A stretch of 64,000 bases of DNA from Patescibacteria group bacterium (GCA_049296775.1 JBAQTB010000001.1:357284-421283); one strand, 5' to 3'; numbered from the stretch's first letter, positions 31,360 to 37,996 are shown. Translations and numbers: made by a program. Notes: generated by a model not told the origin, from the letters alone.

Positions 31360-33450
31360 ATGCAACGCGATTATCCATTAGACCGGGTACGTAACATTGG
31401 TATCATTGCCCACATTGATGCGGGTAAGACGACTACAACCGAGCGTGTCTTGTTTTATACTGGTAAGAAACACAAGATCGGTGAAGTGCATGAGGGTGAG
31501 GCAACCATGGACTGGATGGAGCAAGAACAGGAGCGTGGTATCACTATCACCGCGGCTGCTACTACTTGTTTTTGGAAGGATCACCGGATTAACATTATCG
31601 ATACCCCAGGACACGTTGACTTTACCGTTGAAGTTGAGCGTTCTTTGCGTGTGCTAGATGGCGGCGTGACTGTTTTTGACGGTGTTGCTGGCGTTGAACC
31701 GCAGTCAGAAACCGTGTGGCACCAGGCTGACAAGTACAAAGTTCCACGCGTGTGTTTTATCAACAAGTTGGATCGTACAGGTGCTGATTTTTACAAGGAC
31801 TTGGATTCAATTTATAAGCGTTTAACCACTAACGCGCATCCAATTCAGCTCCCAATTGGAACCGAAGCTAACTTTGTTGGAATTATTGATGTTTTGAACC
31901 GCAAGGCGCACATCTTTAAAGATGACATGGGCAAGGACGTTGAAATTACTGATGTCCCAGAAGCTGAGAAAGCTAGGGTAGAGGAGTATCGCACTAAGCT
32001 GGTTGAAGCGATTGTGGGCAATGATGAGTCTTTGATGGAGCGCTTTTTTGCAGGTGAAGAGATTTCCGTACCAGAACTGAAGGTAGCTCTCCGCAAGAGC
32101 GTAGTAGCCATGAAGATCTTCCCAGTTTTGTGTGGTTCAGCCTTGAAGAACAAAGGTGTTCAGCTCATGCTTGATGCTGTTGTCGATTATTTGCCATCGC
32201 CACTTGATCGTCCACCTGTAGAGGGCTTTAATCCGGATAGCCCAGACGATAAGATTGTGTGCGAAGCTAAGGATGACGCTCCTTTTGCGGCTTTGGCTTT
32301 CAAGATTGCCGCTGATCCATTTGTGGGTAAGCTAGCTTTCTTCCGCGTCTATTCTGGTTCACTTAAATCTGGTACTTACGTGTTGAACACGGCTACTGGT
32401 GAGAAAGAGCGTATCTCTCGTATTGTGCGTTTGCACGCCAACTCTCGTGAAGAAGTGGATCAGGTCTTTGCTGGTGAAATTGCAGCGGCCGTAGGTTTGA
32501 AGGGTACGGCTACTGGTCAGACTTTGTGTGATCCAGAGCATCCAGTCGTGCTTGAAAATATTATCTTCGCTGATCCGGTTATTTCTCAGGCTATTGAGCC
32601 TAAGACTAAGGCCGACCAGGAGAAGATGGGTATGGCACTGGCAAAACTCATGGAAGAAGATCCAACTTTCCATGTGCACACTGATACCGATACCTCTCAG
32701 ACAATTATTCAGGGTATGGGTGAGTTGCACCTTGAAATCATGGTGGACAGAATGAAGCGTGAATACGGTGTAGAGGTGACCGTAGGTCGTCCTCAGGTTA
32801 GCTACCGTGAAGCTATCCGTGGTACAGCTGAAGGTGAAGGTAAGTACGTTAAGCAGTCTGGTGGACGTGGTCAGTACGGTCACGCTTGGATCCGCGTTGA
32901 GCCAAATACAGATCCTGAAAAGCCTGGCTTCCAGTTCTTTGATGAAGTTAAGGGTGGTTCCATTCCTCGTGAGTACATCAGCCCGATTGAAAAGGGTGCT
33001 CGTGAAGCTTGTGACCGTGGTGTGTTGGCAGGTTTCCCGATTATCAATGCCAAAGCCACCGTCTTTGATGGTTCTTACCACGAAGTAGACTCCAACGAAG
33101 CTGCCTTTAAAATGGCTGGTTCTATGGCCTTCCAGGAAGCTGTGCGCAAGGCGCAGCCAATGCTCCTTGAGCCGGTGATGAAAGTTGAAGTTGTGACTCC
33201 GGAAGATTTCATGGGTACGGTCGTTGGTGACTTGAACAGTCGCCGTGGTCAGATCCAAGAGATGGGCGATCGCGGTAACATCAAAACCGTGCGCGCCATG
33301 GTGCCACTTGCTGAAATGTTCGGCTACGCCACCAACGTTCGCTCTCTTACTCAGGGCCGCGCTAGTTACTCCATGGAATTCGGTGAATACCAAGAAGTCC
33401 CTCGCAACGTCGCTGAGCAGATCATGAAAGATCGGAACGGTACAAAGTAA
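31360..33450 (+). CDS. fusA: elongation factor G
   Basis: [32 protein letters not shown], 696 aa. Confidence 0.95.
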
Positions 33451-33750: not shown

Positions 33751-34122
33751 ATGAAGAATTCCCAATTGGATAGGTTGTTAAGGTTTGCGCAGCGGACGGG
33801 GGATCGGTTGATTATTACTGACGCTGAGGGCAAGCAGCCGGTGGTGATTCTGTCTTTAGACGATTACGAGGCACTTTTAGGCCAGTCATCTGCTGAGCAT
33901 AATGAGGCACCTAAGCAGGAAATGCGTAAACAGCCTACAAAAACTGAGGCCAGAGAGCCATTACGGGAGACTGAGGAGGAATACGTGAATATGGCGGAAA
34001 TTGAGGCGGCGGTAGAGGCTGTGAACCGGGAGGCGGCTTCTGAGCCTAAAATTGTGCCAATTACACGCAAAAATCCACCTGCAGACGCTGGTGAGGAGCA
34101 ATTCTATATGGAGCCGATCTAG
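33751..34122 (+). CDS. hypothetical protein with Phd/YefM-like N-terminal domain and acidic tail
   Basis: LDRLLRFAQRTGDRLIITDAEGKQPVVILSLDDYEALLG resembles the Phd/YefM antitoxin fold (PVxITRxGKPVAVLxSxEEYESL). The C-terminal 70 aa are Glu/Ala-rich and disordered. No adjacent toxin gene. Confidence 0.4.
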   Translation: MKNSQLDRLLRFAQRTGDRLIITDAEGKQPVVILSLDDYEALLGQSSAEHNEAPKQEMRKQPTKTEAREPLRETEEEYVNMAEIEAAVEAVNREAASEPKIVPITRKNPPADAGEEQFYMEPI

Positions 34123-34292
34123 ACGCATGAAAATAAGCCAATTTGGCTTATTTTTTGTTTCTTGGACTTCTCTACAGCTGGGACTTGCGTGATTTCTAAT
34201 GTTTTGCTACACTCTCGCCACCTTTAGGAAACTAAAAGTCATTAACTGCGGACAGTTCCTTGGTTTTAAGGAACGCGCGACTAATTACTAGT

Positions 34293-35486
34293 ATGGCAGA
34301 GCAATTTAATCGTGAGAAAACCCACGTAAACGTTGGTACAATTGGCCACGTTGACCATGGCAAAACAACTCTCACGGCCGCTCTTACCGCTGTTTCTGCT
34401 GCACGCGGAATGGGTAAGGCTAAGGCTTACGCTGATATCGCCAAGGGCGGTACAGTTCGTGATGCAAGTAAGATTGTTACAATTTCTACTTCACACGTTG
34501 AGTACTCATCTGACAAGCGTCATTACGCTCACGTCGATTGTCCAGGACACGCTGACTACGTCAAAAACATGATCACTGGTGCTGCCCAGATGGACGGTGC
34601 TATTTTGGTGGTTTCTGCGGCTGACGGTCCAATGCCACAGACCCGCGAGCACATTTTGTTAGCTCGTCAGGTTGGTGTGCCGTACATTGTAGTTTTCTTG
34701 AACAAAGTTGACTTGGTTGACGATCCAGAATTGCTTGACTTGGTTGAGCAGGAAGTTCGCGACCTTTTGAACAAGTACCAATACCCAGGTGATACCACTC
34801 CAATCATCCGTGGTTCTGCTTCAGCTGCTTTGGCAAACCCAGGCGATGACGCAGCTGCTAAGCCAATCGTTGACTTAATGAAGACCTTGGATGAATTCAT
34901 CCCTGATCCAGTTCGCGATACTGATAAAGCCTTCTTGATGCCAGTTGAAGACGTCTTCTCTATTGAAGGTCGTGGAACTGTGGTTACTGGTCGTATTGAG
35001 CGCGGTACCATTAAGATTAACGATGAAATTGAAATCGTTGGTTTGAAGGACACTGCCAAGTCTGTAGTGACTGGAATTGAAATGTTCAACAAGTCACTTG
35101 ACTCCGGTATGGCTGGAGATAACGCTGGTCTTTTGATTCGCGGTATCAAGAAAGAGGACGTTGAGCGTGGTCAGGTCTTGGCTAAGCCAGGTTCTGTAAC
35201 TCCTCACACCAAGTTCGAGGCTGAAATGTACGCCTTGACCAAGGAAGAAGGTGGTCGTCACAAGCCATTCTTCAAGGGTTACAAGCCACAGTTCTACATC
35301 CGTACCACTGACGTTACCGGTGAGATTGAATTGCCAGCAGGAACCGAGATGGTTATGCCAGGTGATACTGTCAACTGTATCGTTACCCTTATGAGCCCAG
35401 TAGCTCTTGAGGATAAGACTCGCTTTGCTTTGCGCGAAGGTGGTCGCACGGTTGGTGCTGGTGTTGTAGTAAAAATTCTTGAGTAA
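34293..35486 (+). CDS. tuf: elongation factor Tu
   Basis: [30 protein letters not shown]..., 397 aa from ATG at 34293. Confidence 0.95.
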
Positions 35487-35544
35487 TGCATAAGACGGGG
35501 AAGAGCCTCAAAGCTCTTCCCCTTCCTGTTGCAAAAATTGTACC

Positions 35545-35886
35545 TTGGTTATGAGCGACGTAAAAACAAAAACTGAAGACAACAAGCAGCGCATTCGTAT
35601 CAAGATTCGCGCCTATGATCACAAGATCATTGATACCGCGACTGTAACTATCATCAAAACTGCTGAACGCAGTGGCGCTGAAGTCCTTGGTCCGATCCCG
35701 TTGCCGACTGAAATTCGTCGCTACACGGTCAACCGCTCAACTTTTATCGATAAGACTTCTCGTGATCAATACGAAATGCGTATTCACAAGCGTTTGATCG
35801 ATATCATGAGCCCCACCGAACGTACTATTGACGCTCTGATGAGTCTCAATTTGCCAGCTGGTGTCGACATCGAAATCAAAATGTAA
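35545..35886 (+). CDS. rpsJ: 30S ribosomal protein S10
   Basis: [39 protein letters not shown]. Confidence 0.9.
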
Positions 35887-36293
35887 CAGGACTTCCTCTC
35901 ATCGAAACTAGTCACAAATGAGAATGTCCTCTGTAAAAAGTAACCGCAGCGGATCTGCGTTCTGAGCATGACAAAGTGTCGTGAGCAAGACGCAGTTCCG
36001 ACTGCACCCAAACCTCCACGGTGAACCAGAAAGAAAGATCCCTCCGTAGCTCCAATGGAGCGAAGGGGGAAAACCTTACTGCCGCTTTGCTACGGAGTGT
36101 CTAAGGAGACTGCCTTAACAAAACAACCATACAACCTGAGCAAAACTTATTTAAGTTCTAGTTTCAGGCTGGAAGTCGACCCACTTTGTGGAGTTATCGA
36201 CTTCTGGTTTTTTCGTTAAATAGCCGGTTCCCTTAATCAGATAGACAAAAGATGACTAATGTTCCACTGCGCTCAAGCGTACGAACACAAATT
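35887..36293 (+). other. ~400-nt structured non-coding spacer between rpsJ and rplC, ending in a terminator
   Basis: No ORF. Multiple hairpins: aggac...gtcct (35888..35930), ctgcgt...acgcag (35957..35998), ctccgtagc...gctacggag (36042..36094). Terminal ggaagtcga-loop-tcgacttc followed by TTTTTT at 36169..36214. Confidence 0.5.
36169..36214 (+). terminator. rho-independent terminator/attenuator immediately upstream of rplC
   Basis: 9-bp stem ggaagtcga/tcgacttct followed by TTTTTT, about 80 nt before the rplC start codon. Confidence 0.6.
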
Positions 36294-36917
36294 ATGAAAT
36301 ATCTTCTCGGTAAGAAAATTGAAATGACCCAGGTCTTCCGTGAGGATGGCAGCGTTGTTCCAGCTACCTTGGTAGCCGTGGAACCATGCGTTATTGCTGC
36401 TTTGCGTGAAGATCAGCAGGGGCATAAGGTTGCCATGATCGGTACAGAGGCGTCTGAAAAAATCTCCAAGCCTCAACTGAAGCAATTCGGTGATAAGGGT
36501 GCTTTCAAACGTGTAGCGCAAGTGCGTCTAGACGGTACAGAAGCCCTTGAAGTTGGTCAGGTTTTGACAGTGTCTACTTTCGAGATTGGTGACAAAGTGA
36601 CAGTTATCGGCACTAGTAAGGGTCGTGGTTTCCAGGGTGTAGTTAAGCGCCATGGTTTCCGTGGTCACCCAACTACTCACGGTCACAAGGACCAGGTGAG
36701 AAAGTCTGGTTCCATTGGTGCTGGTGGTGTGCAGCGTGTCTTTAAAGGCATGCGCATGGCCGGCCGAATGGGTAATGACCGTGTAACGGTCCATAACCTA
36801 GAGGTAGTAGCTGTTGATGCAGAGAAGAATGTTATCGGTATTAAGGGAGCAATCCCGGGTGCACGTGGAGGAGATGTGACTTTGATCGCAACTAACGGCA
36901 ATGTATGGCAGAATTAA
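36294..36917 (+). CDS. rplC: 50S ribosomal protein L3
   Basis: MKYLLGKKIEMTQVF from ATG at 36294. Confidence 0.9.
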   Translation: MKYLLGKKIEMTQVFREDGSVVPATLVAVEPCVIAALREDQQGHKVAMIGTEASEKISKPQLKQFGDKGAFKRVAQVRLDGTEALEVGQVLTVSTFEIGDKVTVIGTSKGRGFQGVVKRHGFRGHPTTHGHKDQVRKSGSIGAGGVQRVFKGMRMAGRMGNDRVTVHNLEVVAVDAEKNVIGIKGAIPGARGGDVTLIATNGNVWQN

Positions 36918-37546: not shown

Positions 37547-37996
37547 ATGAGTACTCTTAAAAACAATACCAAAGACTTAACGACTGACGGTGTAGAGGCT
37601 GTTGAAGTTGTGGCTGCTGAGCCTAAGGCTAAGAAGGTTGCAACTAAGAAGCCAGCCAAGAAAGCTGAAAAAGTAGTGGCTACTCCTAAGCCAGTTGGCA
37701 GGATGGTTTCAGCTAGAACTGCAGCGACTTTATTGGCGCCACTTGTAACTGAAAAGACAGCTCACTTGGCTGATGCCGGTGTTTACGCCTTTTTGGTGCC
37801 AGTAACCGCTAACCGTGTAGCTGTGGGTCAAGCTTTCCGTGACATGTACAAAGCGGCTCCAGTTAAAGTGAACATTATTCGTGTGCACGGTAAGGAGCAT
37901 CGCTTTGGAACAGTTACGAGCCGTCAGTCAGACTGGAAGAAGGCGCTCGTGACAGTGAAGAAAGGCACGCGTATCGACATTTTTGAGAAGATCTAA
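37547..37996 (+). CDS. rplW: 50S ribosomal protein L23 with Lys/Ala-rich N-terminal extension
   Basis: L23 core (LLAPLVTEKTAHLADAGVYAFLVPVTANRVAVGQAF...) preceded by a ~50-aa low-complexity extension. Confidence 0.85.
   Translation: MSTLKNNTKDLTTDGVEAVEVVAAEPKAKKVATKKPAKKAEKVVATPKPVGRMVSARTAATLLAPLVTEKTAHLADAGVYAFLVPVTANRVAVGQAFRDMYKAAPVKVNIIRVHGKEHRFGTVTSRQSDWKKALVTVKKGTRIDIFEKI

Follow-up and report, generated by a model that had tools for sequence, protein, structure and literature searches.

Patescibacteria (CPR) make up a large part of bacterial diversity, are almost entirely uncultured, and have tiny genomes with few recognisable regulators. In the 64,000-nt stretch of Patescibacteria DNA analysed here (the window), the order of genes on the + strand is tuf (34260-35486), rpsJ, a gap of 407 nt, and rplC. 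Elsewhere the genome is tightly packed: most intergenic gaps are shorter than 100 nt, and that between tuf and rpsJ is only 58 nt. The question raised by this locus is what so long a spacer is doing between two ribosomal protein genes. A first reading, made from the sequence alone and referred to below as the sequence-only reading, had described a spacer of about 400 nt with extended hairpins and a terminator, and had offered either a transcription-attenuation leader or an embedded small RNA gene as its explanation. The existence and structure of a conserved RNA in the spacer are near certain from the comparisons reported here, and it is reasonably probable that this RNA is a cis-acting leader of the CPR rplC-rplD-rplW-rplB... 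operon that acts by transcription attenuation.

The predicted S10 protein of the window is 94% identical to Patescibacteria S10 proteins with PF00338, the closest sequences to both its L3 and its S10 are from Patescibacteria (CPR) MAGs, and L3 and L4 Pfam matches were found on homologous loci. rplC is followed by rplD, rplW, rplB and the remaining ribosomal protein cluster, all in the same orientation and a few nt apart; the ATG at 36252 merely opens an upstream in-frame extension of the rplC ORF. The spacer (35887-36293) is non-coding, and its limits are exactly those given in the sequence-only reading. Open reading frames within it are not conserved among relatives. The one at 36055-36219 on the + strand was rejected as coding, its start codon lying in a variable hairpin (P4) and being missing from relatives, and its matches being short and gapped; those on the minus strand at 35784-36011 and 35912-36055 were rejected as well, their matches mostly reflecting antisense rpsJ. 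The spacer folds far better than expected by chance: its MFE is -127.5 kcal/mol, whereas dinucleotide-shuffled versions average -98.9 +/- 5.8 kcal/mol (z = -5.0), and none of 100 does as well. The features of the region are listed in Table 1.

Table 1. Genes and RNA elements of the rpsJ-rplC region, in coordinates of the window.
Feature	Position	Strand	Sequence and basis
rpsJ (S10)	35551-35886	+	ORF and translation; TAA stop at 35884-35886
Lineage-specific 5' hairpin	35889-35929	+	GGAC..CUCUCAU...AUGAGA..GUCC; in MFE structure; outside conserved core
P1, long hairpin	35946-36005	+	GCAGCGGA...UUCCGACUGC; -36.7 kcal/mol, z = -6.6
Core, irregular hairpin (P2a, P2b, P3, internal loop, P4)	36012-36100	+	
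P2a	36014-36017 with 36094-36097	+	CUCC with GGAG
P2b	36022-36026 with 36084 and 36086-36089	+	UGAAC with G and UUUG
P3	36027-36033 with 36075-36081	+	CAGAAAG with CUUACUG
Invariant internal loop	36034-36038 opposite 36071-36074	+	AAAGA opposite AAAC
P4, variable apical hairpin	36039-36070	+	
Candidate antiterminator strand	36075-36083	+	CUUACUGCC; could pair with GGCUGGAAG (36167-36175), terminator 5' half
Linker	36101-36135	+	Purine-rich GGAGA (36105-36109) and A/C-rich tract
P5, helix enclosing a small hairpin	36136-36167	+	CUGAGC...UUUCAG; abuts terminator 5' side; from fold
Intrinsic terminator/attenuator	36169-36213	+	Stem CUGGAAGUCGA...UCGACUUCUGG (36169-36207) and U6 (36208-36213), then CGUU
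P6, hairpin	36260-36287	+	GUUC-CAC-UGCGC...GCGUA-C-GAAC; -9.4 kcal/mol, z = -2.7
rplC (L3)	36294-36917	+	ATG at 36294; protein start MKYLLGKKIEMTQ..., agrees with homologues

A long spacer at this place is typical of the CPR lineage and is not an accident of the window genome. The distance from rpsJ to rplC is 104-497 nt in every Patescibacteria/CPR locus fetched with both genes. Among 76 genome loci that have both rpsJ and rplC, the median spacer is 313 nt (range 104-453) in the 10 CPR genomes, three of which are labelled 'uncultured Gammaproteobacteria' and were counted as CPR by their S10, L3 and leader type, compared with 32.5 nt in the 66 other bacteria; the spacer of E. coli is 32 nt. 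That rplC lies close behind rpsJ in most bacteria, as the sequence-only reading had supposed, is thus correct. Contigs L002, L004 and L006, which bear the label 'uncultured Gammaproteobacteria', encode CPR-type S10 and L3 and possess a CPR leader, and their taxonomic labels are probably wrong.

Thirty distinct CPR spacers, collected from genome, metagenome and assembly collections, contain the same elements in the same order, at identities of L3 to that of the window ranging from 46% to 90%. They form two groups: group A (the window, L081 with L3 90% identical, L184-188, L001, L002, L082, L083 and L161-L203) and group B (L004/L086, L006, L007 of the Magasanikbacteria, L008, L085 and L087), with L005 (Buchananbacteria) intermediate between them. 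The source of L081 is the Hainich aquifer assembly ERZ1292633. Common to both groups is an invariant loop, AAGA(U)...AAAC, set within a helix that differs in sequence by lineage. The P3 helix is found as CAGAAAG/CUUACUG, CGAGAAG/CUUCUCG, AUGGAG/CUCCAU, CUUAAU/AUUAAG, UUAGAU/AUCUAG and ACAAAU/AUUUGU, and a sequence-anchored test shows GC/UA/AU/CG swaps in it across both groups; P2a occurs as six complementary pairs (CUCC/GGAG, CUCU/AGAG, CUUC/GAAG, ACUC/GAGU, GUCG/CGGC and UUCC/GGAA).

For 16 group-A spacers, RNAalifold gives a consensus of 51 pairs, and compensatory changes are seen in 28 of these. In this consensus 95.2% of cells are paired, compared with 40-46% after a shift of the 3' partners by 1-3 columns, and 0 of 500 column shuffles reach the observed value on any measure. 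All 14 pairs of the group-A core are 100% paired, five with double changes (0 of 500 shuffles reach the score), and the eight pairs of the group-B core are 97.9% paired, five of the eight with double changes. The sequence-only reading had staked itself on the presence and conservation of the spacer in relatives, and both were found. The functional strand is the + strand, that of rplC, because only this strand accommodates the many G.U pairs and the U tract.

Model R1, of the group-A core, has a single match in the 64-kb window, at the spacer core, with 66.9 bits. Outside rpsJ-rplC spacers, neither R1 nor its group-B counterpart, R2, had a match in the 0.6-0.8 Mb of sequence fetched. Each recovers essentially its own group only, and matches across groups are not convincing (L005 at E = 0.03-0.2, L085 at E = 1.4). 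A single covariance model for both groups was abandoned: MAFFT shifts the 5' stem by one nucleotide because the loop has 5 nt in group A and 4 nt in group B. Since R1 and R2 are confined to their own groups, the link between the groups rests on the anchored analysis and the terminator sequence, and what they appear to share at the sequence level is a short loop motif and the sequence of the terminator.

No previously described RNA corresponds to this element in the sources searched. Only tRNAs pass the gathering thresholds of Rfam 15 in the whole window; at E <= 10 the best Rfam 15 matches of the spacer are to unrelated families, far below threshold, and at E <= 1 the spacers in the loci of six relatives have no match. 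ARAGORN found no tmRNA in the window. These scans agree with the earlier failure to recognise RNase P, tmRNA or 6S by eye. For Patescibacteria, full-text literature searches returned neither an r-leader or structured leader RNA nor any cis-regulatory RNA preceding rplC. The element is typical of at least part of the Patescibacteria and is apparently an undescribed family within the r-protein leaders and attenuators.

Resemblances to rRNA and RNase P were also considered. The likeness of AGAAAGAUCC and AAAACCUU to CR-I/CR-V of RNase P, and to 23S 2057-2078 (GAAAGACC..AACCUUUAC), both noticed by eye, were rejected, since these sequences pair locally, are flanked by a covarying stem, and have flanks that are absent from group B. 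Pattern scans of E. coli 16S, 23S and 5S rRNA gave no convincing counterpart of the AAAGA/AAAC loop as an rRNA mimic; the one match to a helix-flanked AAGA/AAAC pattern, at 23S ~1120-1151, has flanks that we take to belong to different helices (H41/H42) and not to be mutually paired.

On the 5' side of the core, the leader begins 3-10 nt after the rpsJ stop in most members of group A; the window and L184-188 have extra lineage-specific sequence before P1, and the hairpin at 35889-35929 is common only to L184-L188, being absent from the 90%-identical relative L081. P1 has 17 consensus pairs in the 16 group-A sequences, 14 of them with compensatory changes, and its apical part has been swapped wholesale in L081; it is possibly a processing or stability element. 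The core segment, folded alone, has an MFE structure identical to the comparative one. Behind the core, both groups have a GGAGA-like element. Helices equivalent to P5 abut the terminator in relatives (AGCC/GGCU in group B, UUCC/GGGA in L005, and CYCnAAUCAAC/GUUGUUUUGGG in group A2), a comparison read by eye and not by formal pair count, and additional hairpins are inserted in the P5 region of relatives. P6, which ends 6 nt ahead of the rplC AUG, is found in all but two of the 16 group-A spacers (14 of 16); it varies little, compensatory change being seen in two pairs, and is a possible translational operator.

Two side observations concern the hairpins of the leader. The sequence GUUCCnnCUGC occurs twice in group-A leaders, in the P1 3' strand (35995-36005) and in the P6 5' strand (36261-36270), so that the P1 5' strand could alternatively pair with the P6 region. 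Extra perfect hairpins, CCCCGAC...GUCGGGG, are inserted in the leaders of L081 (1280-1345) and L184 (2100-2125 and 2255-2320), in the P5 loop and upstream of the core; the window has none of them, and L185 differs from L184 by a clean hairpin indel of 25 nt. These hairpins look like small palindromic insertion elements.

The terminator of the window has a stem of 11 bp, two of them G.U pairs, which carries a small hairpin at its apex, and ends 80 nt before the rplC AUG; folded alone it has -20.4 kcal/mol (z = -3.8). The claim of a hairpin with U6 about 80 nt before rplC is therefore upheld. A simple terminator scan had missed it because its loop exceeds the 8-nt limit of the scan. The window sequence qualifies as an intrinsic terminator, and the arrangement of hairpin and U tract is present in all relatives, at 24-92 nt from the U tract to the rplC AUG (37 nt in L008). 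The base of the stem, (GG)CURGAAG...CUUCURG-U5-6-(C)GUU, is conserved in groups A and B, and the upper stem covaries. In 1.73 Mb, searched on both strands, this pattern turned up 47 times; 46 of these sites fall, on the + strand, in the rpsJ-rplC spacer, which makes up 1.3% of the sequence scanned. Loci from other CPR lineages (L003, L020, L027, L088 and L093, e.g. Paceibacterota) are without the AAGA/AAAC core; by eye, each has a hairpin and then a U tract shortly before rplC, and only L088 among them fits the terminator pattern. A terminator in this position may thus be more ancient, or more widely distributed, than the AAGA/AAAC leader.

Transcription apparently enters the leader in different ways in the two groups. 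Most of group B has a near-perfect sigma-70 promoter, TTGACA-17-TAnAAT, within the spacer about 40-60 nt before the core (11 of 12 consensus matches in L007); with its promoter upstream of the core, the element is therefore a 5' UTR in group B. In group A, as scanned in the window and L174, no promoter was seen within the spacer. Between the terminator and rplC on the + strand, no promoter-like site was found at the scan threshold in the window and L174, CPR promoters being poorly characterised. There is too little room for a second promoter behind the terminator in the shortest cases (24-37 nt); in the longer cases an unrecognised one would be conceivable. Because the terminator precedes at least 25 essential genes with no promoter detected between, those genes need read-through. 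The terminator would thus have to be read through, and we infer that termination is conditional.

A leader that acts by attenuation would accommodate these features as follows. Transcription would enter the leader from the tuf-rpsJ unit in the clade of the window, and would start at the dedicated sigma-70 promoter inside the spacer in other CPR lineages. The RNA would fold into the irregular hairpin with its invariant A-rich internal loop, AAAGA/AAAC, which within a covarying helix is the likely sensor, and RNA polymerase would then meet the terminator ahead of rplC. A ribosomal protein encoded downstream, when in excess over rRNA, would bind the internal-loop hairpin and favour termination; when the protein is scarce, polymerase would read through and the operon would be expressed. 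By analogy only, the candidate ligand is L4 in the first place and L3 next. Binding could lock the 3' strand of the hairpin, which would otherwise be free to pair with the 5' half of the terminator; alternatively, the protein could act on a paused polymerase, as L4 does with NusA in E. coli. In the clade of the window, the P6 hairpin just before the AUG may add translational control.

The first of these two modes, an antiterminator switch, is a hypothesis drawn from predicted pairings. Of the sequences upstream, it is the core 3' strand (CUUCCUGCC in L081) that pairs best with the terminator 5' half in L081, L185, L001 and L007, at -13.2 kcal/mol in L081, and in L083/L174/L161/L164 the best partner is elsewhere on the 3' side of the core. 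The pairing is weak in the window (7 bp with two mismatches), where the forced state is 9 kcal/mol above the MFE. In most of group B it is not conserved; there the GGCU beside the terminator seems, by eye, to be paired with the upstream AGCC, and in L008 and L087 the AAAGCC region is the top partner of the terminator 5' half. A universal antiterminator was rejected, folds of the nascent transcript giving differing partners by lineage and the pairing of the core with the terminator being strong in some of them only. A mechanism like that of E. coli, with no rearrangement of the RNA, would by analogy be equally possible.

The element is a conserved structured RNA, with covariation, co-oriented with and 5' of ribosomal protein genes, as r-protein leaders generally are. 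The part of the sequence-only reading that called it an attenuation leader has accordingly gained in substance: the RNA is conserved with covariation, is always 5' of rplC, has an upstream promoter in some lineages, and ends in a conserved terminator. The part that called it an L4/L3-type element relocated inside the operon is not supported: neither the L4-responsive S10 leader of E. coli nor any leader in Rfam shows homology to the RNA in sequence or structure.

The S10 leader of E. coli, an L4-interacting RNA studied by Lindahl and Zengel, is reviewed in PMC3616713. L4, with NusA, stimulates termination in that leader. This control depends on a hairpin that precedes the one of the terminator, and translation is controlled through another hairpin, located at the start codon (PMC3616713). 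Leaders of this type are confined to Gammaproteobacteria (PMC3616713), and conditional terminators are a known mechanism of r-leaders (PMC7247131). The E. coli and CPR leaders, compared by direct reading since the former is itself absent from Rfam 15, are alike in preceding the same gene block (rplC, rplD, rplW, rplB...) and in having a hairpin, a terminator hairpin with a U run, and a start-codon hairpin, tens of nt from the first regulated gene. The E. coli leader, however, is a 5' UTR that precedes rpsJ, whereas the CPR element lies after rpsJ and before rplC; the hairpins HD-HE-HG are not homologous to the CPR element, and the AAGA/AAAC loop is absent from the E. coli leader. The one is found in Gammaproteobacteria and the other in Patescibacteria, for which a response to L4 would be by analogy only. 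The one motif that the two leaders share is the U-tract context UUUUCGUU, which is also found in the CPR terminator (UUUUCGUU(U/A)A being common to the E. coli S10 attenuator, L206, and window 36208-36217); as only an 8-mer, it may be shared by chance.

Other known or candidate leaders resemble the CPR element in position or in mechanism. A candidate L4 r-leader upstream of rplC-rplD-rplW-rplB has been described only in Archaeoglobi, and an S10 r-leader in Firmicutes (Eckert & Weinberg 2020, PMC7247131). In Archaeoglobi the L4 candidate is directly upstream of rplC-rplD-rplW-rplB and S10 is elsewhere, by an elongation-factor gene, which may be compared with the CPR order of tuf-rpsJ followed by leader and rplC. 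The Archaeoglobi and Firmicutes candidates were also found by comparative genomics; they belong to another domain and another phylum, and the CPR element differs in having a conserved intrinsic terminator. Yao et al. in 2007 reportedly found a candidate r-leader by comparative genomics. The L20 leader of Bacillus subtilis (infC-rpmI-rplT; PMC1865079) is an r-protein-responsive 5' leader of about 200 nt with a conditional Rho-independent terminator; its operon, ligand and structure are different, rRNA mimicry has been demonstrated for it, and its antiterminator is defined.

The terminator might instead be constitutive and partial, accompanied by processing or stability elements and responding to no ligand, so as to fix the ratio of EF-Tu and S10 to the downstream ribosomal proteins; P1 would then be an RNase III-type or 3'-end-protecting hairpin of the tuf-rpsJ message. 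EF-Tu is required in large excess over ribosomal proteins, which counts for such an arrangement, as do the very stable P1, the start of the leader within 3-10 nt of the rpsJ stop and the lack of a visible spacer promoter in the clade of the window, and the failure to find a consistent antiterminator across lineages. This explanation is nevertheless rather unlikely, leaving the invariant AAGA/AAAC loop in its covarying helix unaccounted for, as well as the presence in group B of 200-250 nt of leader and a terminator between a dedicated promoter and rplC. Wider roles for the RNA are distinctly unlikely: a CPR-wide master switch of ribosome synthesis that, in place of conventional r-protein feedback, senses another signal, be it a small molecule, an alarmone, an assembly intermediate or the NusE/S10 encoded just upstream, or a terminated product of 200-330 nt that is itself an abundant, stable, trans-acting RNA of these minimal, symbiotic cells.

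A small RNA gene in its own right, with a trans-acting or housekeeping role, that happens to sit between rpsJ and rplC would have much the anatomy seen in group B, namely a promoter, about 230 nt of structured RNA and a strong terminator, and terminated leader transcripts could accumulate and act in trans. The embedded small RNA proposed in the sequence-only reading is nonetheless very unlikely: in every case the element directly precedes rplC and is co-oriented with it, the terminator and rplC being as little as 24-37 nt apart with no promoter between, group A lacks a promoter of its own for it, RNase P, 6S, SRP, tmRNA and other Rfam families are unmatched, and its ends are unpaired, unlike those of 6S.

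A leader that senses something other than a ribosomal protein (a riboswitch, a tRNA or alarmone sensor, or a NusB/S10 antitermination site of the boxA type) is highly unlikely, even with rpsJ (NusE) just upstream and a boxA-like sequence in L081, the closest relative of the window (CCGCUUUAACAA, 10 of 12 positions, equalled or beaten by 4 of 300 shuffles). The boxA-like sequence is unconserved, most leaders having 8 of 12 positions as shuffles do; riboswitch families are unmatched; an internal loop in a simple hairpin is typical of protein sites, not of ligand pockets; and the precedent is that r-protein operons are controlled by r-proteins (PMC7247131, PMC3616713). A boxA/NusB-NusE site in the linker (GCUCUUUAACAA) was considered separately and rejected: a match of 10 of 12 at the linker is found only in L081, and the match of 10 of 12 in L199 lies elsewhere in the spacer. 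Finally, non-functional filler, an insertion remnant or chance structure, is scarcely credible, as the hairpin-sized indels among relatives (L081; L184 vs L185) that might suggest it are set against an architecture kept in 30 distinct spacers, 28 compensatory pairs with far lower values in shuffled and slid controls, and a window genome that is otherwise compact (most gaps below 100 nt).

If the RNA is indeed an attenuation leader of rplC, at the head of the largest ribosomal protein operon, it would be direct evidence that CPR retain autogenous control of ribosome synthesis. The control point would lie after rpsJ, with S10 grouped with tuf as in archaea, and the operon architecture would therefore be unlike that of model bacteria. 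Recognition would involve a compact RNA-protein pair, with an internal-loop hairpin of about 60-90 nt. The class of mechanism is familiar; here the candidate regulatory RNA would govern the main ribosomal operon of CPR. For annotation, the element provides a new RNA family in a gap of 300-500 nt that is currently unannotated in CPR MAGs.

Several other features were observed among the genes around the spacer. An ORF of 123 aa at 33751-34122 lies between fusA (31360-33450) and tuf and breaks the usual order of the str operon; its counterpart in L186/L187 has a weak match to the PhdYeFM antitoxin family (PF02604). It is followed by a clean intrinsic terminator (34129-34155) and then, before tuf, by a promoter-like TTGCGT-17-TACACT, noted by eye. 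The tuf-rpsJ gap contains a G+C-rich hairpin of 10 bp (GGGGAAGAGCC..GGCTCTTCCCC, 35497-35522) without a proper U tract; it may act in processing or stability, or as a weak terminator. The rplW (L23) ORF, 9 nt after rplD, encodes 149 aa from its first ATG (37547-37996) and would thus exceed a typical L23 (about 100 aa) by an N-terminal extension of about 50 aa that is rich in Lys, Ala and Glu. In L008, a group-B Patescibacteria contig, positions 1-56 are the 3' end of a 16S rRNA gene (Rfam SSU, 53.7 bits), about 2.3 kb upstream of rpsJ.
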